50,767 bases of DNA from Akkermansiaceae bacterium (GTDB lineage: Bacteria > Verrucomicrobiota > Verrucomicrobiia > Verrucomicrobiales > Akkermansiaceae), in assembly GCA_023263995.1 (NCBI GenBank), contig JALQTQ010000002.1, positions 1 through 50,767 of the forward strand. Reading direction: 5' to 3'. Numbering within the stretch: position 1 is the stretch's first letter; each line of letters begins with the position of its first letter. Made by a program: the position numbers and the translations under genes. Below the pieces are notes generated by a model. That model saw nothing but the letters and a program-made list of their open reading frames with translations. It was not told where the DNA came from and searched no databases. Shown here piece by piece: positions 1 to 46,600 of this stretch.

Positions 1-57
1 CAGAAGCCTCTACAGCTCCTGACTTTTTCGCCAACCTAAATTGCGCTGGAAACTTGA

Positions 58-333
58 ATCCAAGCGACCAAAGAATTGAATCTCCGTGAGGGTCAGGTGA
101 ATCGGACCCGCTTGTGGCAAAACTTTCGCGAGACTCATCTCACTCATCAACGAAGCTATCTCGCTCGCCTCCATTATGTTCATCAGAATGCGGTCCACCA
201 TCGACTCGTTGCTCATGGTTCTCAGTGGAAATGGTGCAGCGCTGCGGCCTTCAAAAAAGCGGTCACGCCAGCATGGCTTAAAACGATTATGAGTTTCCAA
301 TACGATCAAATTGCGGCCAAGGATGGAGACTGA
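58..333 (+). pseudogene. C-terminal remnant of a RayT / IS200-IS605-superfamily (COG1943-like, REP-associated tyrosine) transposase
   Basis: Frame +1 reads ...RLWQNFRETHLTHQRSYLARLHYVHQNAVHHRLVAHGSQWKWCSAAAFKK. This fits the conserved C-terminal block of RayT-like proteins (WQ..., YIH.NPV...LV, W.WSS). In-frame stops at 37-39 and 55-57 separate it from any upstream catalytic part, so only a fragment is present. The antisense ORF 10..339 is treated as a shadow. Confidence 0.4.
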
Positions 334-338
334 TTCCA

Positions 339-440
339 TTGGACTGCGGCAGCAGGCTGCCGCTTTTGATCAGGCCAGCCTGCTGGCCAACGCAGCAGGC
401 TGCGTTTATCCAAAAGCGGCAGCAGGCTGCCGCAGTCCAA
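339..440. repeat. REP/BIME-like compound palindrome: four GC-rich hairpins closed by a 30-nt inverted repeat
   Basis: Arms 339-368 (TTGGACTGCGGCAGCAGGCTGCCGCTTTTG) and 411-440 (CAAAAGCGGCAGCAGGCTGCCGCAGTCCAA) are inverted repeats. The only 4 mismatches are the loop of a local hairpin GCGGCAG-CAGG-CTGCCGC present in each arm (346-363 and 416-433). Between the arms lie GGCCAG-CCTG-CTGGCC (373-388) and ACGCAG-CAGG-CTGCGT (390-405). Confidence 0.85.
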
Positions 441-478
441 GAAGAACTCCCTGAAGCTGATCACCCCTATTCTCACCC

Positions 479-1138
479 TTGTTCCTCTTCCCTCCAAAGA
501 CAGCGTTCGGCAAGACGGTTCCCAAGAGCCGGATCTGCACTCAGGTCAATGCGACCCGGCGAATCCGTGATCTGTTCACCAAGCAAGTCGCAGAGATCAG
601 GTGGGCCCACAAACTCTCGCCCGAGACAATCCACCTGCCTGCGAAGCCTGGTGTGCCGGAGATCGAGGTCTTCGACATCCAGCTGAAAACACTGACCTGC
701 GACGAGGCGGTGCTGGAAACCGTCGATCGGGCGATTCCGTTCCCCATTATCCACCGCATCTTTTCGGAGAAGGGAGTGGCCTACAGTGCCGCCCACAAGC
801 GACCCAGTGAAGCGGATTCCAGCCAGTGGGTCGTCGGCCCCCGCTTCACTTCATCCTTCAACCCTCAACCTTCATCCTTCGAAAAGCCGCTTCCAGCGGC
901 GCTCGACCTCGGTAAGTTGTATGCGGCCCTCCTCGCCAGCCTCATGCCGCTTCCTGCACGCCCCAAGGAATCCCTCACCAGTCAGATCGCTCGCTGCGAG
1001 CGATTCCGGATTCTCAAACGACAGGTCGACCAGCTTACCGCCAGGGTCCATCGCGAAAAACAGTTCAACCGCAAGGTGGCTCTGAATCAGAAGCTGAAGC
1101 CGCTGAAGGCCGAGTTGAAGGCCCTTTCGGCCCTATGA
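479..1138 (+). CDS. DUF4391 domain protein (usually a companion of type III-like methyltransferase/helicase restriction modules)
   Basis: 219-aa ORF with a TTG start. The N-terminus FPPKTAFGKTVPKSRI...IRWAHKLSPETIHLPAKPGVPEIEVFDIQLK, the central DRAIPFPIIH...AYSAAHKRP and the C-terminal coiled tail REKQFNRKVALNQKLKPLKAELK match my recollection of the DUF4391 family layout. Confidence 0.65.
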   Translation: MFLFPPKTAFGKTVPKSRICTQVNATRRIRDLFTKQVAEIRWAHKLSPETIHLPAKPGVPEIEVFDIQLKTLTCDEAVLETVDRAIPFPIIHRIFSEKGVAYSAAHKRPSEADSSQWVVGPRFTSSFNPQPSSFEKPLPAALDLGKLYAALLASLMPLPARPKESLTSQIARCERFRILKRQVDQLTARVHREKQFNRKVALNQKLKPLKAELKALSAL

Positions 1139-1265
1139 ATCTTTCCAAACGAAAAGCTCCTTACTCTTGAGATTGTCCCAGCCTTCTTGCCAGAATCTGC
1201 TCGATTGAGCAGTAGAAATAATAAAGGATCCCGTAGCTACCGAAGACGATTGAATTTTACTCAAC

Positions 1266-2249
1266 ATGCCCACTGCCTCCCAGATTAAAGCTCTCCTCTC
1301 AAGCCACTCTGCTGGGGACGCCGAGCGCTTCCACGCGGTCGCCCTTCAGATGGCTGCGGCGGAGGCCCGGAAAGGGCACCAAAAGCTCGCAGATGAGATT
1401 AGAGAGTTGGTCAACAAGTCCCGTCGTAATGCGCAGTCTGGCAATATCCGCCAGAAAGTTCATAGCCTGGCCGCTCCTCAAGGCGAAGCGGGTGAATTGC
1501 TCGAGGCCAGCGAGAGTCACCTTCGGCTATCCGATTTAGTCCTTGAGGATTCTCTCCGGGAGCGAGTCGAGCGGATCGTCCAAGAGCAAAAGAACCTCAG
1601 TAAGTTGAAGGAAAGAAATCTCCGACCACGGCAACGCCTGCTTTTCACTGGTCCTCCCGGGTGCGGAAAGACGATCACTGCTTCGGCTCTGGCAAATGAG
1701 CTTCGCCTCCCGCTTTTTGTGGTGAGGCTTGACTCGCTCATCAGCCGATACCTCGGTGAGTCACTCTCCAAGCTGCTTCTCATTTTCGATGCGGCCGAGA
1801 AGCATCGTGCCGTCTACCTTTTTGATGAATTCGACAGCATTGGCTACACTCGGGATGCCAGTGGTGATGTCGGTGAAATGCGGCGCGTTCTCAATGCCTT
1901 CCTCGTCTTCATCGAAAAGATGAAGAGCAACAGCCTTATCATCGCAGCCACCAACTACGGTCAGCGGCTCGATCAGGCCCTCTTCCGTCGGTTTGACGAC
2001 CTAGTCGAATTCGGCCTTCCCGAGACTCCGCAGATCCGGCAGACGATCAAGCGCCTCCTGCGGGACGTAGAGAACGAGGAATTTGACTGGAAGAAGATCG
2101 AGCCTGCGGCCAAGGAACTCAGCTACGCGGAGATCACGCGAGCCACGGAGGAGGCCATCAAGGAGATGATTATTCACGATCTTAACATGGTGACTGACAA
2201 GGCACTCGTCAGGGCCCTGAGCGAACGGCGCATGAACCTTCGTTTGTAA
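1266..2249 (+). CDS. classic-clade AAA+ ATPase (PF00004-type) with a ~110-aa helical N-terminal extension
   Basis: Walker A LLFTGPPGCGKT, Walker B AVYLFDEFD, sensor-1 LIIAATN and Arg-finger region LDQALFRRFD are present. ATG start. It lies 16 nt upstream of the next gene. Confidence 0.85.
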   Translation: MPTASQIKALLSSHSAGDAERFHAVALQMAAAEARKGHQKLADEIRELVNKSRRNAQSGNIRQKVHSLAAPQGEAGELLEASESHLRLSDLVLEDSLRERVERIVQEQKNLSKLKERNLRPRQRLLFTGPPGCGKTITASALANELRLPLFVVRLDSLISRYLGESLSKLLLIFDAAEKHRAVYLFDEFDSIGYTRDASGDVGEMRRVLNAFLVFIEKMKSNSLIIAATNYGQRLDQALFRRFDDLVEFGLPETPQIRQTIKRLLRDVENEEFDWKKIEPAAKELSYAEITRATEEAIKEMIIHDLNMVTDKALVRALSERRMNLRL

Positions 2250-2265
2250 TCATATCCACTTTTCC

Positions 2266-3612
2266 ATGAGAATCCGCTCGTTAACTCTAAAAAACTTCCG
2301 ATGCTTTCCGGACCTCCAAGTGCCGGTGGAGTTTGACAACTCGATGACTGTTCTGGCGGCAACAAACGGCCGCGGCAAATCCTCGATCCTGGATGCTATT
2401 ACCGTTGCCTTGAGTCCCTACACGGCTCAGTTCGAGCATGGAGGGCAGAAGGGCTTTAAGCTGACAGATGCTTACCTAAAGGCTGTCCAACCGAGGGTAA
2501 ACTCTCGCTCCAATTTGTTGAGCACGGAAATTCAGTTCCCGGTAGTATTGGAAGCCGGGTTCGAAATAGAAAACCAAATCGTGCATACTGCACGCCGACT
2601 AACTGGGCCCAAAGGCCGGACCACCATAAAGGAAGCAGCCGCTCTGAAAGAACACGCGGTGGCCCTGTCGAATCGGATCACCAAGGAGGAAACAGCAGTC
2701 AACACAATCCTGCCAGTCATTTCCTACTACGGGACCGGACGCCTCCATGCTCAGAAGCGCCTCACTCAAAAGGGGAAGACTCCAGAAGCTCACAATCCCC
2801 AGTCGAGGACGATGGGCTATCTGAACTGTCTTTCCGCTGAGTCCACCTACAAGCACTTTGCTGAGTGGATGAAGGAGACCACCCTCTCCCAGCTCCAAGA
2901 GTCTGATCCGAGCTATTTTGAGGGAAATCCCGAGATTTTTGAAGGCATGTTGCAAGGAGTCCGCATGGCGGTACAATGCGTCCTTCAGGATCAAGCATGG
3001 AGTGATCTTCGCTACACCGTGAAGAGCGACCAGCTGACGGTGCTTGAGAGCAATGCTCGGATCTCGCTGGCCTCTCTCTCGGATGGATTGCGAAGCATCA
3101 TTGCGATGGTTGGCGATCTCGCCTACCGTTGCATCGCCTTAAATCCCCAGCTTGGCCCGGAGGCTCCTAAGGTTACACCCGGTATCGTCCTTATCGACGA
3201 ACTCGAAATGCACCTGCACCCCGCCTGGCAGCAAAAGGTTCTTGCCCAGCTTCAGCATGCCTTCCCATTCGTTCAATTTGTCTGCACCACTCACAGTCCG
3301 CAGATTCTTTCAACAGTTCGTCCCCGGTCGATCCGAACGCTTCATGAAGGCGGCAAAGTAATGTCGCCGACCTGCAAGACTTACGGAGCGGAAAGCAAGC
3401 GTGTCATGGAGGAACTGATGCGGGTGGATTCCCGACCACCCGTTTTAGTTAACGAGCTTCGAGAGTTTATCACACTCACTGATGGCGGGGACTGGTTCAG
3501 TCAGAGATACCGGGAACTGAGAGAATTGCTGCTCAATGAGCTTGGGCCTAGCGATCCCGTGCTGATCAATGCGGAGATTAAGAAAAACTTCCAACAGCTC
3601 GAAGTCGAATGA
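2266..3612 (+). CDS. ABC/SMC-like ATPase (AAA_15/AAA_21 type), PtuA-like (Septu defence ATPase)
   Basis: N-terminal MRIRSLTLKNFRCF...ATNGRGKSSILDAI (Walker A), Walker B/D-loop IVLIDELEMHLHP and H-loop CTTHSPQILS are present. There is no TOPRIM tail. The stop overlaps the start of an HNH gene (ATGA at 3609-3612). Confidence 0.7.
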   Translation: MRIRSLTLKNFRCFPDLQVPVEFDNSMTVLAATNGRGKSSILDAITVALSPYTAQFEHGGQKGFKLTDAYLKAVQPRVNSRSNLLSTEIQFPVVLEAGFEIENQIVHTARRLTGPKGRTTIKEAAALKEHAVALSNRITKEETAVNTILPVISYYGTGRLHAQKRLTQKGKTPEAHNPQSRTMGYLNCLSAESTYKHFAEWMKETTLSQLQESDPSYFEGNPEIFEGMLQGVRMAVQCVLQDQAWSDLRYTVKSDQLTVLESNARISLASLSDGLRSIIAMVGDLAYRCIALNPQLGPEAPKVTPGIVLIDELEMHLHPAWQQKVLAQLQHAFPFVQFVCTTHSPQILSTVRPRSIRTLHEGGKVMSPTCKTYGAESKRVMEELMRVDSRPPVLVNELREFITLTDGGDWFSQRYRELRELLLNELGPSDPVLINAEIKKNFQQLEVE

Positions 3613-4241
3613 TCTCAATCAAGATAGTCAACCCGCCGAGGTGTCTCGCGGGGTTCGCTTCCAGGTCACCTCTCCCTCGCTTCGATGCTCCAGCGTTCCA
3701 GTCGTGCAAGAACCAGATCCGAACCCAGCTCCTATTAAATCAGCTTCACCAGTGTGCCTACTGTGAGAGACCGATCGAAGATTGTGGGGATTCCTCCCAC
3801 CTGGATCACATAGAAAGCCAGTACGACAACCAAGCTCGACGGTTCGACATTACCAACCTCGTGGCGGCTTGTCAGACGAGCCACACCTGCGGACATGCCC
3901 ACGGGCGGCATTCGGTGCCAGCAGAACTTGATCCCTATCGGTCGCCCGGGCTACACAGCAAGCTGTCCTGTCATTCCAGTGGTGAATTAGAGGCATGCGG
4001 TCTCTCCGCTGCAGCGGAGGAATTCGCTCTTGGCGCAAAGGGCTCAGAAGCACCAACTTTGAATCTGAATGATCCGGGCCTGATCAGTCGCCGAGAGCTG
4101 ATAATCGTCCAGCTGATGCAGCAAACGGTCGCTCTTGGCACCAACGCGAAACGCAAGCTACGGAGCCTTTCCACCCACGGGGTCGGTTTTCAAAGCCTCC
4201 ACTACCAATATCTGGCCCGATTTGGCTTCCCCACACCCTGA
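3609..4241 (+). CDS. HNH nuclease of the TIGR02646 / PtuB-like type
   Basis: Motif LLLNQLHQCAYCERPIEDCGDSSHLDHIES...NLVAACQTSHTCGHAHG matches Q..CAYCE....H.(D/E)H...NL...C...CG..KG-like. The start has a 4-nt overlap with the upstream ABC ATPase, the canonical PtuA/PtuB arrangement. Confidence 0.65.
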   Translation: MISIKIVNPPRCLAGFASRSPLPRFDAPAFQSCKNQIRTQLLLNQLHQCAYCERPIEDCGDSSHLDHIESQYDNQARRFDITNLVAACQTSHTCGHAHGRHSVPAELDPYRSPGLHSKLSCHSSGELEACGLSAAAEEFALGAKGSEAPTLNLNDPGLISRRELIIVQLMQQTVALGTNAKRKLRSLSTHGVGFQSLHYQYLARFGFPTP

Positions 4242-4258
4242 ATCTTCTCAAACAACCA

Positions 4259-4630
4259 ATGGACAAACTCAAACTCCACACCCCGGACTTCGCAGAGGCC
4301 AACGCGGCGAAGCTGGCCGAGCTGTTTCCGAATTGCGTCACCGAGAGCAGGGCGGAAGACGGGTCGATCAAGCGGGCCATCGACTTTGATTTGCTGAAAC
4401 AGGAGCTTTCTCAGGATCTCGTCGAGGGGCCGCAGGAACGCTAACGGCTCGATTGGCCAGGCAAGCGGGAATCCCTCGCCCTCGCCAACGCACCCATCAC
4501 CAAGACCCTGCGGCCATGCAAGGAGGAGTCGGTCGATTTCGCGACCACCAAGAATCTCTCCATCGAGGGCGACAACCTCGATGCCCTCAAGCTCCTGCAG
4601 GAGACCTATCTCGGGAAGGTGAAGATGATC
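4259..4630 (+). pseudogene. N-terminal remnant of a type III-like (N6/N4, PF01555-type) DNA methyltransferase Mod
   Basis: MDKLKLHTPDFAEANAAKLAELFPNCVTESRAEDGSIKRAIDFDLLKQELSQDLVEGPQER-TAA(4442-4444)-RLDWPGKRESLALANAPITKTLRPCKEESVDFATTKNLSIEGDNLDALKLLQETYLGKVKMI is a typical Mod N-terminus, all in one frame. The expected YIDPPYN catalytic motif is replaced at 4631 by the IS66 inverted repeat. Confidence 0.8.
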
Positions 4631-4652
4631 GTAACCGTCCGGGCGACCCCTT
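4631..4652. repeat. IS66 left terminal inverted repeat
   Basis: GTAACCGTCCGGGCGACCCCTT is the exact reverse complement of 9637-9658. Confidence 0.9.
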
Positions 4653-4685
4653 AGGCCTGATCTCGTCGCGGCGTCGGATCGTGTC

Positions 4686-4994
4686 ATGATGGCCGCCATG
4701 TCCAACCGACGACACTTCACCCAGTCCGAGCGCGAGTATTGGCTCGCACATTTCGAGAAGCATCAATCGACAGCCACCAGCTTCTGCCGCCAGCACGGCC
4801 TCTGCTACCAGACCTTCTTGCGGTGGCGGCGGGACGCCCGTATCAACAAGCCATCCTCCGCCGCGCCCGCAACCTTCATCGAGCTTGCCCTGTCTGTCCG
4901 GTCCTCAACACCGCCAATGGGCGAAATGGTCGAACTCACCTTTTCCAGCGGCCTCACTCTGCGCATCCAATCCCAACCCACCCCGCAGTCATGA
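4686..4994 (+). CDS. tnpA: IS66 accessory protein TnpA (Orf1, HTH)
   Basis: The 102-aa ORF reads ...FTQSEREYWLAHFEKHQSTATSFCRQHGLCYQTFLRWRR (HTH_Tnp-like). Its stop overlaps the tnpB start (ATGA at 4991-4994), as in IS66 elements. Confidence 0.7.
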   Translation: MMAAMSNRRHFTQSEREYWLAHFEKHQSTATSFCRQHGLCYQTFLRWRRDARINKPSSAAPATFIELALSVRSSTPPMGEMVELTFSSGLTLRIQSQPTPQS

Positions 4995-5263
4995 TCCTCA
5001 CCCACAGCGTCAAAGTCTGCCTCGCCACCCAGCCGTGTGACCTCCGCAAAAGCTTCGACACCCTCAGTTGCCTCGTCAAAGAACAACTCAAAGAAGATCC
5101 ACTCTCCTCCAAGCTCTTCGTCTTCCTCAACAAACGGGCCAACCGGGTCAAAATGCTCTACTGGGATGGCACCGGACTTTGGATTTTGATGAAGAGAACA
5201 GACGCACACTGCCCGCTTTGGCCCGGTTCCGAAACTTCGGTACCGATTTCACCCGCTCTATGA
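4991..5263 (+). pseudogene. tnpB: IS66 TnpB (Orf2), N-terminal part only
   Basis: MILTHSVKVCLATQPCDLRKSFDTLSCLVKEQLKEDPLSSKLFVFLNKRANRVKMLYWDGTGLWILMKR matches IS66 Orf2 (D(M/L)RK(G/S)FD.L, LFVF.N.R...K.L.WDG.G). Family similarity is lost after about 5197. The missing C-terminus is found at 7795-7953. Confidence 0.75.
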
Positions 5264-5306
5264 AACCGATCTGGAAATTGTCGGCTCGATTGGCGGCCAA
5301 CGCGAT

Positions 5307-5513
5307 TTGATCTTCGTCAGATTGCCCGACAACAGTTCGCGTGGCATTCCGGCCTGGATGTTTGATCCAGTGCGCTGCGAAGCCATGCGCTTTGATCGCA
5401 GTGCCACCGTCGATCCGGAAGCCTTGCTGGATCTGACAAGACTGCTTGACCTCCATCAATCGGAGTGGGCTGATCCGGATGATGAACGCGATTCAAGAAA
5501 GCCCACCACCTGA
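5307..5513 (+). CDS. small hypothetical protein upstream of the serine recombinase (possibly N-terminally truncated)
   Basis: The open frame actually runs from 5193 (...RFGPVPKLRYRFHPLYETDLEIVGSIGGQRDLIFVRLPDNSSRGIPAWMFDPVRCEAMRFDR...). The only canonical start is TTG at 5307. I recognise no family. Confidence 0.3.
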   Translation: MIFVRLPDNSSRGIPAWMFDPVRCEAMRFDRSATVDPEALLDLTRLLDLHQSEWADPDDERDSRKPTT

Positions 5514-5661
5514 TTGTCCAACTGCCCACGAACAGGACCTCCTTCCCTTGGAGCAGATTCAAATCACCAACCACCTGCCCGCCGACTCACGGCATGAATG
5601 CCGACAGCTTTTCGAAGAGCTGCTGCGGCAGGTCATCCTCCCACAAAACTCCAAACTGTAG
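5479..5661 (+). CDS. small hypothetical protein (60 aa) immediately upstream of the serine recombinase
   Basis: ATG-ATG start, MMNAIQESPPPDCPTAHEQDLLPLEQIQITNHLPADSRHECRQLFEELLRQVILPQNSKL. It ends 23 nt before the recombinase start. I recognise no family. Confidence 0.3.
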   Translation: MMNAIQESPPPDCPTAHEQDLLPLEQIQITNHLPADSRHECRQLFEELLRQVILPQNSKL

Positions 5662-5684
5662 TTTATATCGTACCTTAAATAATC

Positions 5685-7757
5685 ATGAATGAAAAACTCT
5701 CCGACGGCCAGCTGCAGCGCGCGGCCTACATCTATATTCGCCAATCAACCTTGCAGCAGGTGCGGCATAATGTTGAAAGCAATCGCCGCCAATACGAACT
5801 TGAGGACCGGGCCAGAATACTCGGTTTTCAAAAGATCACCATTGTGGATGACGATCTCGGCATCTCCGGCAGCGGCACCCAAGAGCGTCCCGGTTTTGCT
5901 CGTCTTCTCAACGCCGCCTGCAATGGCGAGGTCGGCGCCGTCTTCGCCTTGGAAGCCTCCCGCCTTGCCCGCAACAACCGCGACTGGCACCATCTCATCG
6001 ACCTCTGCGTTCTCACCGACACCCTCGTCATTGATGACGAAGGGGTCTACGATCCTCGCTTGCTCAACGACCGGCTCCTGCTGGGACTCAAGGGCACCAT
6101 GAGCGAGTTCGAACTCGGCATCCTGCGTCAGCGCGCCCAGGAAGCCTATCGGCAAAAAGTCATGCGCGGTGAAGTCCTCACCCGCGTTCCCGTCGGCTTC
6201 GTCCGGGAAGGAAAGACCGGCATCGTCCTCACCCCGGATCTGGAAATCCAGCAAGCAATCCGCACCCTTTTCGAACAGTTTGAGACTCGCGGCAGCCTGC
6301 GTCAGGTCCTGCTTTGGCATCATGAGGAAAAGATCAACTTTCCCGCCATTCGCTATCGTCACGGCGGCTACCATGTTGACTGGCAACTTCCCAACTACCA
6401 GCACCTCCTGCGAGCCATGAAAAACCCCACCTACGCCGGAGCCTTCGCCTGGGGGAAGAGCACCTCACGCTCCAAGGTCGTTGAAGGCCGTTCCCTCAAA
6501 ACTGGAGGACACAAAGTTCCAATGGAACAGTGGCAGGTTTTGATCAAGGATCACCACCAAGGATACATCACCTGGGATCGCTACATGGACAATCAGAACA
6601 AGCTCGCCTCCAACCGCACCCGCAGTCACCAAAGCTCACCCGGCGCGGCCAGGGAAGGCTCCGCACTCCTTGCGGGACTCCTGCGCTGTGCCAAATGCGG
6701 GCACAAAATGCACGTCGCCTATCGGGGCAAAGAGAAAAGCGCTCCCCGATATTACTGCTTTGACGGAACCAAGGAAAAAGGTCGTCCCACCTGTCTCAGC
6801 TTCGGCGGTGTGAAGGTCGAAAACGCCATTGTCGCGCACGTCCTCGAAGCCTGCCAGCCCATTGGGGTGGAAGCCTCCCTTCACGCCTTTGAACACCAAG
6901 ACAGCCAGCGCGCACAAAAACGCCGTGCTCTCGAACTCTCCCTTGAACGCCTGCAATACCAGGCCGAGCACGCCCGTCGTCAATACGACGCGGTCGATCC
7001 CACCAACCGACTCGTCGCCTCCGAACTCGAAGCCCGTTGGAATCAATCCCTCCAATCAGTCAGTGAAGCCGAAGCCCTGCTTGACGCCGAACCCGAAGCC
7101 ACCTTTGCCCTCACCGAAGAGCAGAAGCAGCAACTTCAACACCTCGGGCAAAGTCTCAGCGAACTGTGGCACCATCCGGACAGCCCCGCCGACCTCAAGA
7201 AACGCATCCTGCGCTGCGTCATCGAAGAAATCATCGTCGACATCGACGAAGGCCCCGGACACATTGACATGCAAATCCACTGGAAGGGCGGCACCCACAC
7301 CCCCGTGCGGACCCGCAAAAACAAAGTCGGAGTCAACAGCAACGCAACGGACAAAACCATCGCCGAACTTGTCCGCGAAATGGCCAAAGCATGGAACGAC
7401 AAATACATCGCCGCCTCCCTCAACCGCCTCGGACTCAAAACCGGCAAAGGCAACAACTGGACCGAGATCCGCGTGCGCAACCTGCGCCGTGAGAACAACG
7501 TTCCCATCCTCAGCAAAGCTCCCGCAAGAACCTGGAGGACCATGGATGAAGCCGCCGAGATCCTCGGCATCAGTACTGCCAGCACCCGCACCCTGGTACG
7601 CAACAAGATCCTGCCAGCCCGCCAGATTATCCCTGGTTCTCCATGGTTGATCGAGGATGACGACCTCTCAACCGACACCATCCAAAACCACCTCAAACTG
7701 ATTCAAACAGGCAAAACCCCTCCGCGTGAGGACAACCACCCAACCCTAGACCTTTGA
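5685..7757 (+). CDS. large serine recombinase (resolvase/invertase N-domain + recombinase domain + zinc ribbon + coiled coil + C-terminal excisionase-type HTH)
   Basis: AAYIYIRQSTLQQV (catalytic Ser), GAVFALEASRLARN, LLLGLKGTMSEFELGILRQR, zinc ribbon LLRCAKCGHKMHV...YYC and C-terminal MDEAAEILGISTASTRTLVRNKILPARQ are present. Confidence 0.9.
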   Translation: MNEKLSDGQLQRAAYIYIRQSTLQQVRHNVESNRRQYELEDRARILGFQKITIVDDDLGISGSGTQERPGFARLLNAACNGEVGAVFALEASRLARNNRDWHHLIDLCVLTDTLVIDDEGVYDPRLLNDRLLLGLKGTMSEFELGILRQRAQEAYRQKVMRGEVLTRVPVGFVREGKTGIVLTPDLEIQQAIRTLFEQFETRGSLRQVLLWHHEEKINFPAIRYRHGGYHVDWQLPNYQHLLRAMKNPTYAGAFAWGKSTSRSKVVEGRSLKTGGHKVPMEQWQVLIKDHHQGYITWDRYMDNQNKLASNRTRSHQSSPGAAREGSALLAGLLRCAKCGHKMHVAYRGKEKSAPRYYCFDGTKEKGRPTCLSFGGVKVENAIVAHVLEACQPIGVEASLHAFEHQDSQRAQKRRALELSLERLQYQAEHARRQYDAVDPTNRLVASELEARWNQSLQSVSEAEALLDAEPEATFALTEEQKQQLQHLGQSLSELWHHPDSPADLKKRILRCVIEEIIVDIDEGPGHIDMQIHWKGGTHTPVRTRKNKVGVNSNATDKTIAELVREMAKAWNDKYIAASLNRLGLKTGKGNNWTEIRVRNLRRENNVPILSKAPARTWRTMDEAAEILGISTASTRTLVRNKILPARQIIPGSPWLIEDDDLSTDTIQNHLKLIQTGKTPPREDNHPTLDL

Positions 7758-7794
7758 AAATGAAAGAAGACGCTTCCTGTCGCAGTGTGAATCA

Positions 7795-7953
7795 ATCCTC
7801 AAACGTCTCGAGCGGGGTTGCTTCGCCCGGCCCAAGCCAGACGACCAGACCAAGGCCAAAATCCACCTCAAGCCCGAAGCCCTCGAAATGCTCCTCAGCG
7901 GGATCGACCTCAAAGACGGCATGCAGCGTGGTTGGTATCAGGAGCCAAATTAG
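7795..7953 (+). pseudogene. tnpB: IS66 TnpB (Orf2), C-terminal part
   Basis: This frame is not in the supplied ORF track. It reads ILKRLERGCFARPKPDDQTKAKIHLKPEALEMLLSGIDLKDGMQRGWYQEPN-stop, matching the IS66 Orf2 C-terminus (KRLE.G.F.WP......L....L..LL.G(I/L)D). Confidence 0.65.
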
Positions 7954-7971
7954 GAAGCACATCGTACCCAT

Positions 7972-9594
7972 TTGAAAAAACAACACAAAGCACCCGGAGT
8001 TGGCACTCTGGGTGCTTCCTTTTCAAGCGTGAGTGAAGAGCTGACCGAGGACCAGAAAACCATCCAGGAATTGCGTGAACGCATCCTTCAACTCGAGCAG
8101 CAGATCGACTGGTTCAATCGCCAGCTCTTCGGCAGCAAGAGCGAAAAAATCAACGCCCAACAACACCCCGACCTCTTCAACCCCGTCGGCCTGGGAAAGC
8201 CCGAGACCTCCTCCGAAAACCGACCGGAGGAGGAAGATAACGAGCCCCAAGAAGCCCCCCGCAAAACAAAAACTCGCCGCCGCCAAACCCGCAGCGAAGC
8301 ACTCCCCGAGGGGCTCGAAATCCGCTCCAGCTACGTCGACCCGCCCGAGTATCGCGAAAACCCCGCCGCTTGGCGGCTCCTCAAAGAAGAACCCCGCCGC
8401 CACCTTGGCAAAGACCCCGGCACCTTTTACATCGAGGAAAAAATCTACCGCACCTGGGTTCCCATCGACACCGATCAGATCCAAGCGAAAGCCATCGGCG
8501 CCAAAGCCCCGCCCACCATCATCCCCGGCGGCTTCTGGCTCTCAAACCTCCTCGCCGAAGTCGTCTGCAATCGCTTCCTCTACCACCTGCCGTACGATCG
8601 CCAGAGCAAACTCTACCAAAGCCGCCACGGAGTCTATCTCCCCAAGCAAACGATGTGCGACGGGGCCCTCCACCTCGCCAACCAATGCCAAATCCTCGTC
8701 GACCTCATGAAGAGCGACATGCTCCAGTGCGGGTGCTTGAGAGCGGACGAAACCGAGGCTCGCTTCCGCGATCCTGACAAACCCGGCACCACCGGGCGCG
8801 GGCGCTTCTGGCTCTACAAAGGCCTCAATGGCAACGTCATCTTCGACTGGACCCTCGGTCGCGACCACCAACACTTCCTTGACTGGATCGGCCTGGACTT
8901 CGAAGGCATCATCGGAAGCGAAGCCTACGAGGTGTATCCAAAATACTGCCGCCTTCAAAAAGCGCGAGGCAAGAAAACCCGGCGTGCCGCCTGCCTCGCC
9001 CACATTCGGCGTCAATTCGAAGAAGCCCTCAAAACCAGCCCGCACCTCGCCAAATGGTTCCTCAAGATTTTCGGCAAACTTTACCAAATCGAAGCCACCC
9101 TCAACGAGCGTGAGGCTGATGAAAACACCACCGCACGCTACCGCCAAAAACACAGCCTCCCCCTCATAAGACTTCTCAAAAAAGCCAGCCTCCACCTTCG
9201 AGACCAAAAAGCAGGACGTCCCGCCGGACCTCTTGGCAAAGCGGTGCGTTATCTCCTCAACCAAGGAGAGGACATCGAGACCTACCTTTTCCATGGCCAG
9301 GTCGAGATTGACAACAACGGGATCGAGAGAGACGTCCGCCCCCTGGCTGTCGGCCGCAAGAATTGGCTCTTTATCGGAAGCCCCGAAGCAGGCCAACGGA
9401 GTGCCGTCATCTACAGCTTACTGATCAGTGCTCGTCACCACGGAGCAGACCCGGAAGCCTACCTGCGTGGGCTCATCGAGCGGCTTCCAAGCTGCGGGAG
9501 CGACGAAGCATCACTTCGTCAACTCCTGCCCGAAAACTGGGCCGCTGCGCAGGAGCAATCAGCAAGCCGGTCATCGGCCCGCGCCGCCGCCTAA
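7972..9594 (+). CDS. tnpC: IS66-family DDE transposase TnpC
   Basis: The N-terminal leucine-zipper region ends in QIDWFNRQLFGSKSEKI. It is followed by the DDE_Tnp_IS66-like core (LRADETEARF, WLYKG, NNGIERDVRPLAVGRKNWLFIGS) and the IS66 C-terminal motif. The start may be TTG 7972 or GTG 8029. Confidence 0.9.
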   Translation: MKKQHKAPGVGTLGASFSSVSEELTEDQKTIQELRERILQLEQQIDWFNRQLFGSKSEKINAQQHPDLFNPVGLGKPETSSENRPEEEDNEPQEAPRKTKTRRRQTRSEALPEGLEIRSSYVDPPEYRENPAAWRLLKEEPRRHLGKDPGTFYIEEKIYRTWVPIDTDQIQAKAIGAKAPPTIIPGGFWLSNLLAEVVCNRFLYHLPYDRQSKLYQSRHGVYLPKQTMCDGALHLANQCQILVDLMKSDMLQCGCLRADETEARFRDPDKPGTTGRGRFWLYKGLNGNVIFDWTLGRDHQHFLDWIGLDFEGIIGSEAYEVYPKYCRLQKARGKKTRRAACLAHIRRQFEEALKTSPHLAKWFLKIFGKLYQIEATLNEREADENTTARYRQKHSLPLIRLLKKASLHLRDQKAGRPAGPLGKAVRYLLNQGEDIETYLFHGQVEIDNNGIERDVRPLAVGRKNWLFIGSPEAGQRSAVIYSLLISARHHGADPEAYLRGLIERLPSCGSDEASLRQLLPENWAAAQEQSASRSSARAAA

Positions 9595-9636
9595 TCACCG
9601 GCCAGCTCCTCTTGGCGAAAATAGACGACACCCCGG

Positions 9637-9658
9637 AAGGGGTCGCCCGGACGGTTAC
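9637..9658. repeat. IS66 right terminal inverted repeat
   Basis: AAGGGGTCGCCCGGACGGTTAC is the exact reverse complement of 4631-4652. Confidence 0.9.
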
Positions 9659-9792
9659 ATTCATCAAGCCTGTGGCATCCGTGATCCGGAATACTTCGAA
9701 CTCAAATTACGTCATCACACCGCTATGCGTTCGTGACGAAGGAGCAATTTTTCGATGGCCGGACTTTGAAAAACTCGTTTTAGTCCAAGGTC

Positions 9793-12700
9793 ATGAAGAA
9801 ACCTTTTGTATTTTCGATGATCTCCTTCGGGCTGTTGTCCGTTTGGTCATTTGCGGGAATTACCAAAACCAAGCTGGCATCGGCACAGACTGGCGGTGAG
9901 AGTTTGTTCCGGGAGCTTGATTCAAACTCCACTGCGATCCATTTCGTCAATCCCATCGATGAAACCCACGACCTCAAGAGGCTTTACATCTCCGGATTTG
10001 CCGGAGGGGGCGTCTCTTTGGGAGATCTTGATAACGACGGAATGATCGATGTCGTGCTGACGTCGGGCGCACGCGAAAACAAGATTTTCAGGCAGACCGC
10101 GCGATGGAAGTTCGAAGAGGTCGAGTGGGATCCCACGTCCAAAGACCGTTGGTCGAGTGGCGCAGCAATCCTCGATATCGACAACGACGGAGACCTCGAC
10201 ATTTATGTCTGTAACTATGACGTTGCCAACAGCCTTTACATCAACGTCACCGAGCCGGGTGGAGAAATCAGGTTTGAGGAGCAAGCGAAGAAGTGGGGCC
10301 TGGATATCGCGGACGCGAGTTTGAATCCCTCGTTCGCTGATTACGATCTCGACGGAGATCTCGACATCTTCATTCTCACCAGCGAGTTCAAGCGGGCAAA
10401 CGGGCGTCCCAAGGAATTGCCGATTGTCGGCAAGAATACCGCGAATCCCCGTCTCAAGCCGGGCTTTGAGAAGTATTATACCCTCGTGAAACATGGCCCG
10501 GGCAACTATGTTTATTACAACGCGGGGCGGGAGAATATTCTTCTGCAAAATCAGGTGGCTCAAGGGAGCAAGAGCTTTGTCGATGTCTCCAAAGCGGCGG
10601 GGATCAAGGAGCGGACCTTTGGCTTGTCCTGCACCTGGTATGATCATGACGGTGACGGCGATCTTGACCTTTATGTCTGCAACGACTTCGACAACCCGGA
10701 TCAACTTTATCTCAACAATGGCAACGGAACCTTCACGGATGTCATTAAACTGGCCGCTCCCTACACCAGTTGGTATGCCATGGGATCAGATGCTGCGGAT
10801 CTCAATGGAGACGGGCGTTTCGATCTCGTGATTGCCGATATGGGAATGACTAGCCACTACAAATCAAAGACCACGATGGGCGACATGAGTATCCACCGTG
10901 AGTTTTTGGATACCGCCATTCCAAGGCAGACCATGAGAAACACCGTCATGATCAACACTGGAACCGGACGGTTTATGGAAGCGGGCTACATGGCCGGACT
11001 GGCAAACTCCGATTGGACTTGGGCGGTGAAGTGTTCGGATTACGACTGTGATTCTTTGACTGATGTTTTTTTTGCCAACGGAATGGCTCGGAAGACCAAC
11101 GATTCTGATCGCCCGATGCCTCTGTCTTTCATGTTTGGAAACACCGAGTTCGATTTCTTTAAATCCAGCGACACCCGTGAGGAGGATAATCTGGTGTTCC
11201 GAAACAAAGGTGATCTCAAGTTTGAGGACATGAGCGCGAAATGGGGCATCAAGGAGCCTACGATGAGCTACAGCGCCGCGACTGGCGACCTTGACAATGA
11301 TGGAGACCCCGACTTGGTGGTTGGCCATCTTGCGAGACCGGTGGCCTTTTATGAGAACACGACGGGAGACGAAAGAAAACGGATCACCGTTGCCTTGCGG
11401 GGGACTCGGAGTAATTCGCGGGGCGTCGGAGCGGTGGTAAAAGTGACGGCGGGTGGCAAGACCCAGGTCAAGGCGGTTAATCCAATGACCGGGTTCATTT
11501 CCTGTGATGCTGAAGAGCTGCAATTCGGGTTGGGGGAGAGCGATCAAGTCGAGAGCCTCGTCGTTGAGTGGCCCGCTGGTGGGGTGGACCGTTTCGAGAA
11601 TCTGGAGGCCGGTTATCGCTACCTCGTCAGCGAACCAAGGTCTCCCCGCCAGGTTCGCGAAAGGAAGCGCCCGCGTCCCGATTTCATCAAGGTGCAGTTG
11701 TTGAGCCACGGGATCCATCGTGAGTTGCCCTTCGATGACTATCTGAAACAGCCGCTGATGCCATGGAGACAATCACGAATGGGGCCGGGGATTGCGTGGG
11801 CTGATGTGGATGGTGACGGAGATGATGATTGTTTCCTGGCGCAAGCAGGGGGGAGCCCAGGTCAGCTTTCCTTGCAGCGATCTGATCGTAGGCTGGAATG
11901 GAATCCGAGCGAAGTCTTTGCCGCTGATACTTCTTCTGAAGACATGGCACCTTTGTTTTTTGACGCTGACGGAGATGGCCGGGTCGATCTCTTGGTGACA
12001 AGTGGCAGCATTGAGAAAGAGGAGGGGCATGCGGCCTACCGGGATCGGCTTTACCTTGCCGCCGGAGAGCCGGGCCAATTCGCTCCGGCCTACGATTTGC
12101 CGGGAGAGCCCATCAGTTCCAGTGTTGCCGCTGCCGCGGATGTCGACCGCGATGGTGATCTGGACCTTTTCGTTGGAGGTAGGGTGGTGCCGGGGCGTTG
12201 GCCACTCTCTCCTGGAAGTCGCCTGTATCTTAATGAGAGCAAGCCGGGTCAGTTGAAATTCGTGGAAGCTCCCGAGGAGCAGGCGGGGGCACTTGCCGGA
12301 TGTGAGAGGGCCACCTCCGCGCTTTGGACTGATATCGACCGGGATGACTGGATGGATCTCATCGTCACCCACGAATACGGCCCAATCAGAGTCTTCCGAA
12401 ATCAAAAGGGAGTCTTGAGAGAGATGACCACTGAGGTGGGCTTTTCTAAGCGAACGGGGATTTGGAATGGAATCGCCGGCCGTGATCTTGATGGCGACGG
12501 CGATATCGATTACGTCGCCACCAACTTCGGCATCAACACCACTTACAAGGCGACTTCGAAGAAACCCGAATTACTTTATTTTGGCGACCTGGATGGGACC
12601 GGAGAGTTTCGTTTGGTCGAAGCGAAACTTGGAGATGATTGCCAGTTGCCACGAAGAGGGTTGAGTTGTTCCAGCAACGCTATGCCTTCGCTCAAGACCA

Positions 12701-18729: not shown

Positions 18730-19923
18730 ATGACCATAGACGAACTCAAAATGTTGATTGGAAACGGTGAGGCGGATCGCGTGGAAGTGACGCGATCAAC
18801 AACGGATACGAATAAGTTCCGGGAAGCGATCTGTGCGTTTTCAAACGATTTGGGCGGAAATGGCTTGCCAGGGTATCTCATCATCGGAATCGACGAAAAG
18901 GACGGGGATTTTCGGTTGCCAATCACCGATGACTTGATGCAACAATTTGCAGCTTATCGGTCGGATGGTCAGGTTATGCCGCTTCCTGTTATGCGAGTCG
19001 AGAAAGTGGATCATCCGGGGGGGGGAGGAGAGGTGTTGGTGGTGGAAGTTAAGCCACACGATATGCCGCCTGTCCGATTTAGGGGACGTGTCCACGTGCG
19101 GGTGGGGCCTCGAAAGGATACTGCAAGTGAGGCAGAAGAGCGGGTGCTTATGGAGCGTCGGGCGGCTAACTTTCCAACCTTTGACGCGGCACCATGCCCA
19201 GAAGGTCTGCTGGATCGTTTAGACCTGGAAACGTTTCGCCAAACATATCGGCCCGCTGCAATTGCGGAGGAGGTCATTGCGGAAAACCATCGAGATTTGA
19301 AGGAGCAGCTTGCGGCTTTGCGCTTTTACAACCTTCCCCGCGATTGTCCAACCAACGCTGGGATGCTGGTGCTGGCCTATGATCCGTTGGACCTTTTTCC
19401 GGGGGCAAAGGTTCAGTTTGTCCAATTCGATGGTCCAGGATTGGATGATGCGCCGCTTGCCGAAAAAACCTTCACTGGGAATTTGTTGACGATCCTTTCG
19501 GAGTTAGACGCTTTTCTAAACGGTCGGTTTACCCAACGCCCGGTCAAAGTGTCCGAATTGCGAGAAGTGGCCGTATTTGATTTCCCGCCTGAAGCGGTGA
19601 GAGAACTGTTGATGAACGCGATCCTTCATCGTGATTATCAGTCCACCAGTCCGGTTCGACTCTATCAGTTTAGCAACCGCATCGAGATTCAAAATCCCGG
19701 TGGCCTTTATGGGGAAGCTTCCCTCAATAATTTTCCCCGGGTGAATAGCTATCGCAACCCCATTATCGCCGAGGCCATGCATGTGCTTGGCTATGTTAAC
19801 CGTTTTGGCCGAGGCGTAGCACGGGCCAGGCGAGTGGTTGTTGAGAACGGAAGCCCTGAGTTGGAGTTTGAGTTCGAACCCCATCATTTTCTGGCTACCA
19901 TCCCAAAGCATCCTGCTCGATGA
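18730..19923 (+). CDS. Schlafen-like AlbA_2 (divergent AAA, PF04326-type) + HATPase_c_4 domain protein
   Basis: The N-terminus is ADRVEVTRSTTDTNKFREAICAFSNDLGGNGLPGYLIIGIDEKDG. The C-terminus is RELLMNAILHRDYQSTSPVRLYQFSNRIEIQNPGGL...SYRNPIIAEAM...NRFGRGV. These are the hallmark blocks of that two-domain family. Confidence 0.75.
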   Translation: MTIDELKMLIGNGEADRVEVTRSTTDTNKFREAICAFSNDLGGNGLPGYLIIGIDEKDGDFRLPITDDLMQQFAAYRSDGQVMPLPVMRVEKVDHPGGGGEVLVVEVKPHDMPPVRFRGRVHVRVGPRKDTASEAEERVLMERRAANFPTFDAAPCPEGLLDRLDLETFRQTYRPAAIAEEVIAENHRDLKEQLAALRFYNLPRDCPTNAGMLVLAYDPLDLFPGAKVQFVQFDGPGLDDAPLAEKTFTGNLLTILSELDAFLNGRFTQRPVKVSELREVAVFDFPPEAVRELLMNAILHRDYQSTSPVRLYQFSNRIEIQNPGGLYGEASLNNFPRVNSYRNPIIAEAMHVLGYVNRFGRGVARARRVVVENGSPELEFEFEPHHFLATIPKHPAR

Positions 19924-20954
19924 AGACTCTCGCGTTTTTCAATAATAAAGGCGGTGTAGGGAAAACCACACTAGTTTATCATCTTGCCTGGATACTCTGT
20001 GACATGGGGAAGCGCGTGTTGGTTGCTGATCTCGACCCTCAAGCGAATGTCACTTCGATGTTTCTATCTGAGGACGACCTCGAAACTCTTTGGAATCCGG
20101 AAGTTGACAGCAAACAGAGCATCATGGCTCCGATTGAGCCGTTGATTCGCGGCCTCGGCGATATTGGCCAAGCTCCGTGTCATCAAATTTGCGAAGGCTT
20201 GTGTCTGCTACCAGGGGATTTGAGTCTTTCGAACTTCGAGTCGAAGCTTTCTGACTCATGGGGAAGATGCCTGGACCGGGATGAGGCAGCCTTTCGGATA
20301 ACGAGTGCCTTTCACCGACTGACACGGAATGCAGCTGATGATTTCGGAGCGGATATTGTGCTCATTGATGTAGGGCCGAATTTTGGTGCTCTCAATCGAG
20401 CGGCTCTCATATCTGCGGATGCCGTTGTAGTTCCCCTAGCTCCAGACCTATTCTCGATCCAAGGTCTTCGAAATCTGGGTCCGACGCTTAAGCGATGGAG
20501 GGAGGAGTGGAACGAGCGGAAGACGAAGAATCCAGAACCTTCGCTTGATCTGCCTACCGGGACAATGTCGCCGCTGGGTTACGTGGTTCTCCAGTTCGGA
20601 ATCAGAGACAGCCGCCCCGTCAAAGCCTATGACAAGTGGTCCAAGAAGATCCCCTCAACTTTTCGGGATTTTGTAATTGGCTTGCCGGCGCAAGGCGAAG
20701 TGGCTGAGGGGGAGGATGAATACTGTCTCGCTCTTCTGAAGCATTATCGCAGCCTGATGCCTATGGCAATGGAATCGCGAAAGCCAATCTTTCACCTCAA
20801 GGCAGCAGACGGAGCAATCGGAGCTCACACCTATAGCGTGAACGATAGTGGGAAGGATTTTCGACGACTTGCGGACCAGATTCTTGAGCGCCTCGGAAGT
20901 GGATCTCTTTATACCGATTCTTCCTTCAGGGCGCTGATGAATAATGATTTGTGA
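19920..20954 (+). CDS. ParA/Soj-family (deviant Walker A) ATPase with an extended C-terminal region
   Basis: MKTLAFFNNKGGVGKTTLVYHLAWIL...VLVADLDPQANVT and VLIDVGPNFGALN are present. The start overlaps the upstream stop (ATGA at 19920-19923). Confidence 0.8.
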   Translation: MKTLAFFNNKGGVGKTTLVYHLAWILCDMGKRVLVADLDPQANVTSMFLSEDDLETLWNPEVDSKQSIMAPIEPLIRGLGDIGQAPCHQICEGLCLLPGDLSLSNFESKLSDSWGRCLDRDEAAFRITSAFHRLTRNAADDFGADIVLIDVGPNFGALNRAALISADAVVVPLAPDLFSIQGLRNLGPTLKRWREEWNERKTKNPEPSLDLPTGTMSPLGYVVLQFGIRDSRPVKAYDKWSKKIPSTFRDFVIGLPAQGEVAEGEDEYCLALLKHYRSLMPMAMESRKPIFHLKAADGAIGAHTYSVNDSGKDFRRLADQILERLGSGSLYTDSSFRALMNNDL

Positions 20955-43690: not shown

Positions 43691-46600
43691 AAACCGCATG
43701 CCATTCCAACTCCCGGCCGGGCCGTTTTTGGGTAGCTGTCCTGTTCCTTTCCGGGCTCGTTCCCGCGCTCTTTGCCCAGCAGCAGTTCCAGGGGCTCTGC
43801 AACCGGGTGAAGATCGAAATCGCGCAGGAGCTGACCACCGAACGGATCGGATTCGAGGCCGTGCTCAAGGTGACCAATAACGACGGGGAGGATCCCATCA
43901 CCAACTTCTCGGCTGCTCTCACCTTCACTGACAAGGAAACGGGGGAGGATGCCGCCGACCGGTTCTTCGTGCAGCCTCCCGAGTTGTCCTCGATCAACCG
44001 CATCGACGGAACGGGCAACATCTCGCCGACCCAGACGGCTGTCATGACCTGGTTCATCATTCCCAAGACCGGGGAAAACGCGCCGGGTGGTGAGGACCCC
44101 CGCGGGAAGCTCTACGACATCGGATGCAATCTCGCCGGCTCGATCCGTGGGGAGCCCATTCCCGGTGATGTCCTTTTCGCGGTCAGTGACACCATCACGG
44201 TTCGGCCGGAGCCTCAGTTGGCTATCACTTACTTCCAGCCTCGCGATGTGCAGGGTGACGATCCGTTCACGCCGGAGGTGGAAAGCCCCATTCCCTTCAC
44301 CCTCGGGGTGTTGGTCAAGAATGACGGCTTTGGAATCGCCAAGAAGGTCAAGATCGATTCCCAGCAACCCAAGATCCAGGAGAATCGCAACGGTCTCTTG
44401 TTAATTGCGCGCTTGCTCGGAGCGCGGGTGCAGGACTCGCAACTCGATGAGACCAGCCTTGTGGTCAATCTCGGCGACATCGAGCCGGCCAAAGTGAAGA
44501 AAGGGGCGTGGGACATGATCACCTCGCTGAGCGGCGAGTTCGTCGAGTTTCAGGCCCGCTACACCCACGCCGATGATCTCGGAGGTGAGGCCACCTCCCT
44601 GATCAAGAGTCTCGATGCCCACTTCATCGCCCGCGAGGTCCTCAATGACGAACCCGGGCGGGACTCTATCATGGATTTCCTCGCCGATACTGATCGGGAT
44701 TCCAACCGTATCCCCGACACCCTCTACGAAACGGATGGCGCCATCCTGCCGGTCAACTACCAGCCGCAGGCAACCGTTGATGGCCTGAGTGGAGGCAAGA
44801 CCACCGTGACCCTCAATGCCGACCGCGAGGGGTGGGTCTACCTTCGTCTCGACGATCCCGCCCAGTTTCGCTTCCCGATTGCCAGTGTGGTGCGCAACGA
44901 CGGCAAAGTCCTCAATCCCCGGAACTACTGGACCAACGTCCGTTACCGACCATCCGACAACTTCCGCCTGACTTACCTCAATCTCTTCGATCGCGTGGAA
45001 AACGGAGCCTCCCATACCTATGAGGTGACCTATGACACGGTCAGCGACGACGTCACTTCTCCGGAGACCCGCATTCGCTTTTCAGGCGAGGTGAGCGGAG
45101 ATGGGCCGTATTACATCACGCCTGAAACGCAGATCTACTTCACGAGCGAGGACGATAGCCCGGTCTCGATTGAATACCAGCTTGACGGCGGCGGCTTCCG
45201 GCCGGCCCTTCCCTTTGATCTCGATCTTCCCGGCACCTATGTCGTGGAGTTCTTTGCGACCGATGTCCCCGGCAATGTCGAAGTCACCAAGACCGCGACC
45301 CTGATCATTCCGGAACCGGGAGCACCGGTGGCCTTGAGTGCCGATGAAAACCGGATCTTCCCGTCGGATCTTCTCTCTATCCGGCCAAACCAGACCCCCA
45401 TCCGTGCCACCGTGCCACCAAGCTCAGTCGAGGTGAACGGGCAACTCCGGCTCTACCGTGGGGTGGTGGCCTTTCCTCAACTCGCCGGGATCCCGATGGA
45501 CCCGACTCCCCGGAGTGGGGCCACCATTGAAGTGAGCGGGCAATTCGCGGAGTATTACCAATATCGGATCAATGGCGGTGCCTGGACTGCCGAACGTCCG
45601 GTTGATCAGCTCATCGAACTGACCGACCTCAGCGGATCGATCACTCTTGAGGTGCGGGCGCGCCATGGCCTCGGAGATTACCTTGACGACGCCCAAGCGC
45701 TCACGGTGACCTGGACGGTCGATCCCGCCGCCGAGGATCTGATGATCACCGGGCTGCCTCCCACACCCACCCGCGAAGGCAGTACTATTACCGCCGACGT
45801 GACCACTAACGGTTCCTCGACGCAATACCGATGGTCTCCGGGTGGGCTCGGCTTTTATCGCCCGGCTGAACCCTACACCACTCCGATCACGCGCGAGCGT
45901 CTGCTGGAGGGAGATTATCAACTCAACATCATCACCAATGCCGGTGGGACTTTTCCCGATGAGGCCGCCCCCGACTCGGTCAGCGTGGCCCGGTGGACTT
46001 TTGACCGGAGCTGGGGATTTGATTTCTCAAGCCTGACCGAGATCCGGAGCGAGGAACTGGACAATGTCGCGGGGACCGGGATTTCCTTTGTCTGGGATGG
46101 TCGTGATTCCGATGGCGTGGAGCAGATTCCCGGAGCCTACACCGTTTCCCTGGAGCTCACCGATGCCCTCGGCAACATCACCCGGGCCGCCAGCCTGGTC
46201 GAGATCGAGGGGCTGTCGTCGAGTCGGCAGATCCTGGCCGCCGCCTCGAGCTCTCCCGGCAACCTCCGGGCGCAAGGCGACTGGGCGGTTTGGCAGCAGC
46301 GGGTGGGAACCACCTTGAACATCTTCGCCGACAATCTCAGCGACAGTGAACCGCCGGTGGCCATCACCAACTCGGTGGAGATGGACCAGGAAGATCCAGC
46401 GACCGATGGGGCCTATGTCGTTTGGCAGACCCGTTTGCCCAACGGCTCCACCGATCTTCTTTACTCCCCCCTGGGTGCCCCGACTCCGGCCATCGTGACT
46501 GACACGCCGGGCCGGGTGGAGGCCAATCCGGTCATCGAGTGGCCCTGGGTGGTCTACCAGGTCAAGGATGCTGACAGCCCGTCGGCTCCGTGGCAGGTCG

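Follow-up and report, generated by a model that had tools for sequence, protein, structure and literature searches.

In the Septu defence system, an oligomer of the ATPase PtuA is reported to hold and control the HNH nuclease PtuB, which is freed upon infection. Genes matching this pair occur in a contig of an Akkermansiaceae bacterium (Verrucomicrobiota; assembly GCA_023263995.1, contig JALQTQ010000002.1, positions 1 to 50,767, hereafter referred to as the window), where the gene of an AAA+ ATPase stands immediately upstream of them on the same strand. A preliminary description, made from the sequence alone, had regarded this three-gene cassette as an undescribed Septu variant or a new three-component system. 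The AAA+ protein leads to a second group of known systems, IetAS, of toxin-antitoxin type, in which the S8 serine protease IetS is described as the toxin and the ATPase IetA as the antitoxin; a construct with a mutated ietA could not be made by the authors of that work (PMC13069673). A variant of IetAS, termed ietHAS, additionally needs a SNF2 (DrmD-like) helicase (PMC13069673). The analysis presented here indicates that the cassette is probably not one three-part system, but two separate known defence modules that adjoin each other within a defence island undergoing decay.

The cassette comprises three open reading frames (ORFs) on the + strand, encoding proteins of 327, 448 and 210 aa, which are listed below together with the gene and the intergenic region preceding them and the junction that separates the two modules.

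479..1138, + strand: DUF4391 gene, an accessory of a type III restriction-modification (R-M)-like island and the left edge of its cargo slot (Pfam PF14335, 3.6e-49)
1139..1265, + strand: AT-rich intergenic region 5' of ietA (41.7% GC; sigma-70-like site at 1167-1196)
1266..2249, + strand: ietA, classic-clade AAA+ ATPase with an N-terminal three-helix bundle (PADLOC IetA, Pfam AAA)
2229..2265, + strand: junction where IetS is missing, formed by the last ~7 ietA codons and a 16-nt spacer (homology break, spacer likeness)
2266..3612, + strand: ptuA, Septu ABC/SMC-type ATPase (PADLOC PtuA, PDB 8ee4)
3609..4241, + strand: ptuB, Septu HNH nuclease, overlapping ptuA by ATGA (PADLOC PtuB, Pfam HNH, 8ee7_C)

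Direct reading of the sequence bore out the coordinates and strand given in the preliminary description, as well as the 16-nt spacer between ietA and ptuA (2250-2265) and the ATGA shared by ptuA and ptuB (3609-3612). Every motif quoted there was located in the translations, namely GPPGCGKT (aa 129-136), LFDEFD (185-190) and ALFRRFD (238-244) in the AAA+ protein, NGRGKSS (aa 34-40), LIDELEMHLHP (309-319) and TTHSP (341-345) in PtuA, and CAYCE (aa 49-53) and HLDH (64-67) in PtuB.

Judged by its profile matches, the 327-aa protein is full-length IetA, that is, the ATPase half of IetAS without its protease partner. It matches the PADLOC IetA profile at 1.8e-74, with residues 3-321 on profile positions 3-321, and Pfam AAA at 1.5e-29, and it retains intact Walker A and Walker B motifs and an arginine finger (GPPGCGKT, DEFD, RRFD), with all family-invariant columns kept. 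These matches support the earlier assignment to the classic AAA+ clade, and the accompanying proposal of a comparison with IetA-type ATPases pointed the right way. Against the NCBIfam equivalog IteA_antiphage, the protein scores 206.6 bits, under the cut-off of 510. Its closest relatives are all linked to IetS: it is 91% identical to protein P0001, whose gene is followed by IetS, 91% identical to the IetA of locus L006 (loci of relatives are referred to by such numbers), 84-85% to that of Haloferula helveola (L001) and 84% to that of L007. In the AlphaFold2 model (mean predicted local distance difference test score of 80.5), residues 4-58 form a three-helix bundle, followed by a disordered linker and a classic AAA+ module, and the closest folds found by Foldseek are proteasomal Rpt/PAN, FtsH and p97. 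Since the IetA profile spans residues 3-321, the ~110-aa N-terminal region, described previously as helical and unrecognised, is the ordinary N-terminal domain of the IetA family. The near-invariant C-terminal LxLNH was considered as a protease-docking motif and rejected as a feature of general validity, being conserved in the Verrucomicrobial clade only and variable across the wider family.

On the evidence of profile and structure-based matches, positions 2266-4241 constitute a complete two-gene Septu pair, as the preliminary description had recognised. The 448-aa protein matches the PADLOC PtuA profile PDLC00310 at 8.2e-130 over residues 1-446 of 448 and the solved standalone Septu PtuA (PDB 8ee4) at 5.7e-72 over residues 1-433; it carries the Walker A, Walker B, signature and H-loop motifs, and every column invariant across its 16 closest clade relatives is present, and no PtuA in the database is more than 69% identical to it. 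The 210-aa protein matches PADLOC PtuB (3.9e-20), Pfam HNH (1.5e-4, 22.3 bits with a cut-off of 21.4) and the solved PtuB 8ee7_C (3.5e-4), and the CxxC...HLDH...N...CGH motifs of PtuB are kept in clade members. Both proteins fall below curated cut-offs, with 264.7 against 500 for PtuA (NF041760), 66.3 against 150 for PtuB (NF041761) and 41.4 against 52.15 for TIGR02646, to which the HNH protein had earlier been likened. NF041760 and NF041761 are equivalogs built on the proteins of retron Ec78, so the missed cut-offs argue against retron-type equivalence and not against Septu. There is no reverse transcriptase (RT)-like ORF in window positions 1-9000 and no retron RNA among the Rfam matches at E<=1 in positions 1-10000, on which grounds a retron-type PtuAB was rejected and the pair assigned to standalone-type Septu. 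The two proteins would accordingly be expected to work in the manner reported for Septu in the literature.

The genes that IetA and PtuA normally adjoin were surveyed from both sides. The IetA-side survey took one genome per GTDB species and covered 80 loci from many phyla, with homologues 46-76% identical, and the PtuA-side survey covered 80 metagenome loci, of which 78 hold a more distant PtuA, 35-40% identical. IetS lies directly 3' of IetA in 73 of the 80 genome loci; four loci stop at a contig edge, so that the proportion among informative loci is 73 of 76, and the remaining three (L012, L038 and L046) are IetA orphans, none of them with PtuA. The six closest IetA homologues examined (62-91% identical) all have a gene for a Peptidase_S8 protein of 740-860 aa immediately downstream, and these S8 proteins are recognised by the PADLOC IetS profile (1.9e-35 and 3e-34). 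The same order is seen on a Rhizobium plasmid, where the homologue, annotated as an ATP-binding protein, is followed by an S8 family peptidase. In contrast to this regular association with IetS, PtuA adjoins IetA in none of the 80 IetA genome loci, and IetA is found within ~7 kb of PtuA in none of the 78 distant PtuA loci. The linkage of AAA+ homologues to ABC-ATPase/HNH pairs, which the preliminary description had suggested checking, is therefore largely absent, and a conserved three-gene IetA-PtuA-PtuB system was rejected, there being no general linkage from either side. An undescribed Septu variant or a new three-component system is not supported, as the AAA+ protein is IetA and its pairing with PtuAB arises only through the loss of IetS in one hotspot.

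This hotspot is found in Verrucomicrobial type III R-M operons, whose order is SNF2, DUF4391, cargo, Mod, Res, the slot extending from DUF4391 to Mod. Comparison of gene orders identifies this slot as a cargo hotspot. In L001, L007 and L014 the order is DUF4391-IetA-IetS-Mod, the full order in Haloferula helveola (L001) being SNF2-DUF4391-IetA-IetS-77aa-Mod-GmrSD-UvrD, and in L008 and L094 it is DUF4391-IetA-IetS-PtuA-PtuB-Mod. The close PtuA clade (54-70% identical) always stands directly 5' of the type III Mod, in the arrangement SNF2-DUF4391-X-PtuA-PtuB-MTase_III-REase_III, where X is nothing in L009, an AbiEi-like DUF6088 gene in L010, L173-175 and L176-177, all of which have PtuA-PtuB-Mod without IetA, IetA-IetS in L008 and L094, and IetA alone in the window and in L091/92. 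Window positions 476-2228 (DUF4391-IetA) are colinear with L001, homology to which restarts at the start of Mod (4253-4630), and positions 2710-4630 (PtuA, PtuB, Mod) are colinear with L008 and L010. From the alignment with L001 and L007, a recent import of PtuAB replacing IetS was considered, and it was dropped once L008, L010 and L094 had been compared, since in these loci PtuA-PtuB-Mod proves to be a colinear block of long standing, and IetAS can occur together with PtuAB.

The cargo of this hotspot is varied, comprising diverse combinations of IetAS, PtuAB, AbiEi-like, Fic and GmrSD genes across L001, L008, L014, L091, L094 and L173-L177. The DUF6088 protein matches PADLOC AbiEi at 1.5e-67, and its gene lies directly 5' of ptuA in L173 (5740-6429), L176 (5492-6106) and L010 (4126-4683), with a 4-nt overlap with the ptuA start in L173; judging from these gene orders, a recurrent Septu variant of three genes may be represented better by AbiEi-PtuA-PtuB than by the layout with IetA. 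Between IetS and PtuA of L094, the N-terminal part of Mod is duplicated over 23 codons (MDNLKIHSKDLNVENIARLADEN*) at positions 6797-6868, suggesting that PtuAB entered or was exchanged through recombination at the 5' end of Mod. The SNF2 proteins of the relatives have C3a139 'HKD+Snf2' as best PADLOC match, with weaker partial matches to DrmD. Because the Escherichia coli ietHAS needs a SNF2 helicase (PMC13069673), SNF2 and DUF4391 might be functionally tied to IetAS and not to the R-M genes.

No tblastn match to IetS was found anywhere in the 50.8-kb window, and with no adjacent IetS the locus represents a remnant of IetAS and not an IetAS system. Nucleotide homology to IetAS loci ends at 2228-2239, and the window IetA ends in MNLRL in place of the conserved C-terminus LHLNH of its clade. 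The spacer that follows, TCATATCCACTTTTCC, resembles the spacer between IetS and PtuA in L008 and L094 (TAACCACTTT...), and CCACTTTT is retained on the right side of the junction. Gene order and junction together suggest that the window is the arrangement of L008 and L094 minus IetS, and that the adjacency arises only within this one Verrucomicrobial type III R-M hotspot. In L008 and L094, one copy of the 7-nt sequence AACCACT lies at the stop codon of ietA and another in the spacer between IetS and PtuA, and such a direct repeat could mediate a precise deletion of IetS. Mapping of the exact breakpoint was abandoned, the junction being too short and too diverged.

Two further IetS-less forms of the locus are known from the relatives. 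L091 and L092 have the IetA-PtuA-PtuB layout, and at the junction of L091 the first bases of the IetA-IetS spacer are kept, while a 1-nt frameshift carries ietA past its old stop to a TGA overlapping the ptuA ATG. In L009, the C-terminal tail of IetS, its last ~20 residues, is still encoded after ietA. The window IetA is 77% identical to that of L091 and 72% to that of L009, and thus nearer to IetS-linked IetA proteins; the PtuB proteins of L091 and the window are only 30% identical. Because of this relationship, the different junctions and the IetS tail retained in L009, sequence comparison indicates a minimum of three independent losses of IetS (in the window, in L091/92 and in L009).

The ancestral order was most likely DUF4391-IetA-IetS-PtuA-PtuB-Mod, from which a deletion of IetS would have left only 16 nt between the ietA stop and the ptuA start. 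Loss of the toxin with retention of the antitoxin would be a harmless and viable route of decay for a toxin-antitoxin pair, leaving an orphan antitoxin, and the survival of ietA as an intact gene can be explained by this harmless toxin-first loss. The only promoter-like match upstream of ietA is the sigma-70-like site at 1167-1196, of consensus level only. From 92 nt 5' of ietA onward, positions 1174-2228 align unbroken with L006, an IetAS locus (83%), and this alignment in a single piece shows that the region 5' of ietA is the usual upstream region of the family. No terminator-like site was seen between ietA and ptuA, and ietA is probably co-transcribed with ptuAB; transcription from the ietA promoter region probably reads through into ptuAB as a consequence of the deletion, which is no evidence of partnership.

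Several observations weigh against the reading of two separate modules, and most of them would fit a different explanation, considered unlikely, in which IetA has been co-opted as a third Septu component and either restrains PtuAB in the manner of an antitoxin or acts on it as unfoldase or sensor, the three genes working as one operon. Loss of IetS appears enriched beside PtuAB, being seen in 2 of 4 loci that have PtuAB (window excluded) and in 3 of 76 others (Fisher p=0.018), in a sample that is small and non-independent. The window ietA lacks signs of decay, with all invariant residues kept, 3 deviations at 149 conserved columns compared with a family mean of 2.1, and polarised nonsynonymous/synonymous (N/S) counts of purifying type, 16/32 as compared with 8/15 on the IetS-linked sister branch. 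The same layout recurs in a second lineage, L091/92, with a stop/start overlap of ietA and ptuA; however, each of the two occurrences is the product of its own deletion, with its own junction, rather than an architecture passed on by descent, and the overlap in L091 stems from the frameshift, which destroys the conserved IetA C-terminus on a branch with raised N/S counts (33/33 against 9/35, p=0.002). The tight 16-nt spacing with no terminator-like site, which would suit one operon, carries no specific information, because all genes in these operons are tightly spaced. An antitoxin-type AbiEi/DUF6088 gene stands directly 5' of ptuA in other clade members, and PtuAB of the close clade may generally lie behind such an upstream gene (IetA or AbiEi/DUF6088) as a third component. 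A precedent is provided by retron type I-A, in which PtuAB is placed under the control of a third component. By analogy with the RT-multicopy single-stranded DNA of that retron, IetA might have been recruited to restrain or activate PtuAB, the loss of IetS being favoured if PtuAB lies downstream, although this appears doubtful, given that the pairing is seen in none of the 80 IetA genome loci or the 78 distant PtuA loci and that IetS still stands between both modules in L008 and L094.

The intactness of ietA could also be accounted for if IetA were kept as a stand-alone orphan antitoxin against IetS from plasmids or mobile elements, in an anti-addiction role unconnected to PtuAB. IetAS was originally reported as a toxin-antitoxin pair that stabilises plasmids, homologues are frequent on plasmids (1454 matching plasmid records), and IetA orphans away from PtuAB exist (L012, L038, L046), in line with the lack of relaxed constraint on the window ietA; yet such orphans are rare (3 of 76), no report of cross-protection by an orphan IetA was found in the literature consulted, and a recent deletion may suffice to explain an intact ORF, so that this role has a low probability. 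An assembly artefact, in the form of a chimeric join or a collapsed region, was considered because the relatives are metagenomes, and no point supporting it was found. It is highly improbable as the cause of the missing IetS: reading frames are intact to either side of a clean junction, two more assemblies (L091 and L092), obtained from other sequencing runs, have their own IetS-less layout, and L009 has yet another deletion, which left a scar. Relaxed selection on orphan ietA was rejected as a discriminating signal, the deviations and N/S counts giving no information on the window and no more than a suggestion for L091, and on these data a recent deletion and continued selection, whether with PtuAB or as a stand-alone antitoxin, are inseparable. 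The reading of two separate modules, a relic IetA beside an independent Septu pair, is nevertheless the probable one.

The surroundings of the cassette are those of an eroded island, in which neither SNF2 nor Res has a match anywhere in the window, and two features adjoin the cassette on its right.

4259..4630, + strand: Mod 5' fragment, codons 1-124, type III methyltransferase pseudogene (PADLOC MTase_III 3.6e-13, first 61 aa)
4631..9658, + strand: IS66-family element of 5,028 bp, cutting Mod at codon 124 (tnpA, tnpB, serine recombinase, tnpC)

The Mod fragment is 92% identical to residues 1-124 of the L001 methyltransferase, and nothing past codon 124 is left in the window. At codon 62, a conserved Tyr (TAC in L001) has become an in-frame TAA (4442-4444), which implies that Mod was already dead, or died separately, apart from the insertion of the element. 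The IS66 element is bounded by perfect terminal inverted repeats of 18 bp, GTAACCGTCCGGGCGACC, at 4631-4648 and 9641-9658, matches Pfam HTH_Tnp_1, TnpB_IS66, Resolvase/Recombinase and DDE_Tnp_IS66, and has, between tnpB and tnpC, the passenger gene of a large serine recombinase of 690 aa (5685-7757). The 8-bp sequences flanking the element are unlike (AGATGATC and ATTCATCA), with no target-site duplication, which indicates that the insertion was accompanied by a deletion. Regarding base composition, the 127-nt gap before ietA (1139-1265) has 41.7% GC as compared with 58.6% for the whole window, and is as AT-rich as first described; the earlier spot count of 28/60 on the line starting at 2281 (46.7%) is also correct. 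The low GC attributed to the whole block holds in part, as the 54.8% of the cassette is modestly below the 60.8% of 21-50 kb and close to the 54.7% of 9.6-21 kb.

On the upstream side, positions 339-440 form a long imperfect palindrome, whose arms of 30 nt are 93% complementary and which includes shorter nested repeats, and this palindrome and unrelated sequence stand 5' of DUF4391 where the relatives have the SNF2 gene. The palindrome may be a repetitive extragenic palindromic (REP)-like element or a recombination scar; a match of it to a plant microRNA family in Rfam (44 bits, with a gathering score of 90) is surely spurious. Elsewhere in the window, ~15 kb from the cassette, a 397-aa Schlafen/AlbA_2 + HATPase_c_4 protein overlaps a 344-aa ParA/AAA_31-type ATPase (18730-20954), and the two may form another defence-type or mobile-element gene pair. 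Positions 29663-47667 hold a giant ORF of 4,675 aa followed by an overlapping ORF of 1,326 aa.

The locus illustrates the turnover of defence islands, with a type III R-M operon serving as landing pad and a toxin-antitoxin-type system that decays toxin first. The gene order left by such decay mimics a novel operon, which is a warning for discovery pipelines based on guilt by adjacency. If co-option were true, the control of a Septu nuclease by a classic AAA+ ATPase would represent a novel way of regulating Septu and offer an initial hint at the function of IetA.

Compared with known systems, the locus combines a Septu pair with what is left of IetAS, both of them known kinds, within a type III R-M island that has decayed. 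As in Septu (8ee4/8ee7), a 448-aa ABC/SMC-type ATPase is encoded together with an overlapping 210-aa HNH nuclease, with no RT or retron RNA nearby, whereas the PtuA clade of the window is embedded in a type III R-M operon, directly 5' of Mod. As in IetAS, the 327-aa protein matches IetA end to end and is 46-91% identical to proteins followed by IetS, but the window differs in having no IetS, a C-terminus of MNLRL instead of LHLNH and a score below the IteA cut-off. The likeness to ietHAS lies in the relatives, whose IetAS genes form one co-directional array with a SNF2 helicase (C3a139 best, partial DrmD); the window has neither SNF2 nor IetS, and the arrays of the relatives add DUF4391, type III Mod and Res. 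Retron type I-A (Ec78/Eco7), with PtuAB under an upstream-encoded third component, is the best functional analogy for co-option, but the window has no RT or noncoding RNA, and its PtuA matches retron-type PtuA over the C-terminal half only. With type III R-M systems, the window shares DUF4391 and the 5' end of Mod, which are colinear with the complete SNF2-DUF4391-...-MTase_III-REase_III operons of the relatives, while it lacks SNF2 and Res and retains Mod as a nonsense-mutated, IS-truncated stub.

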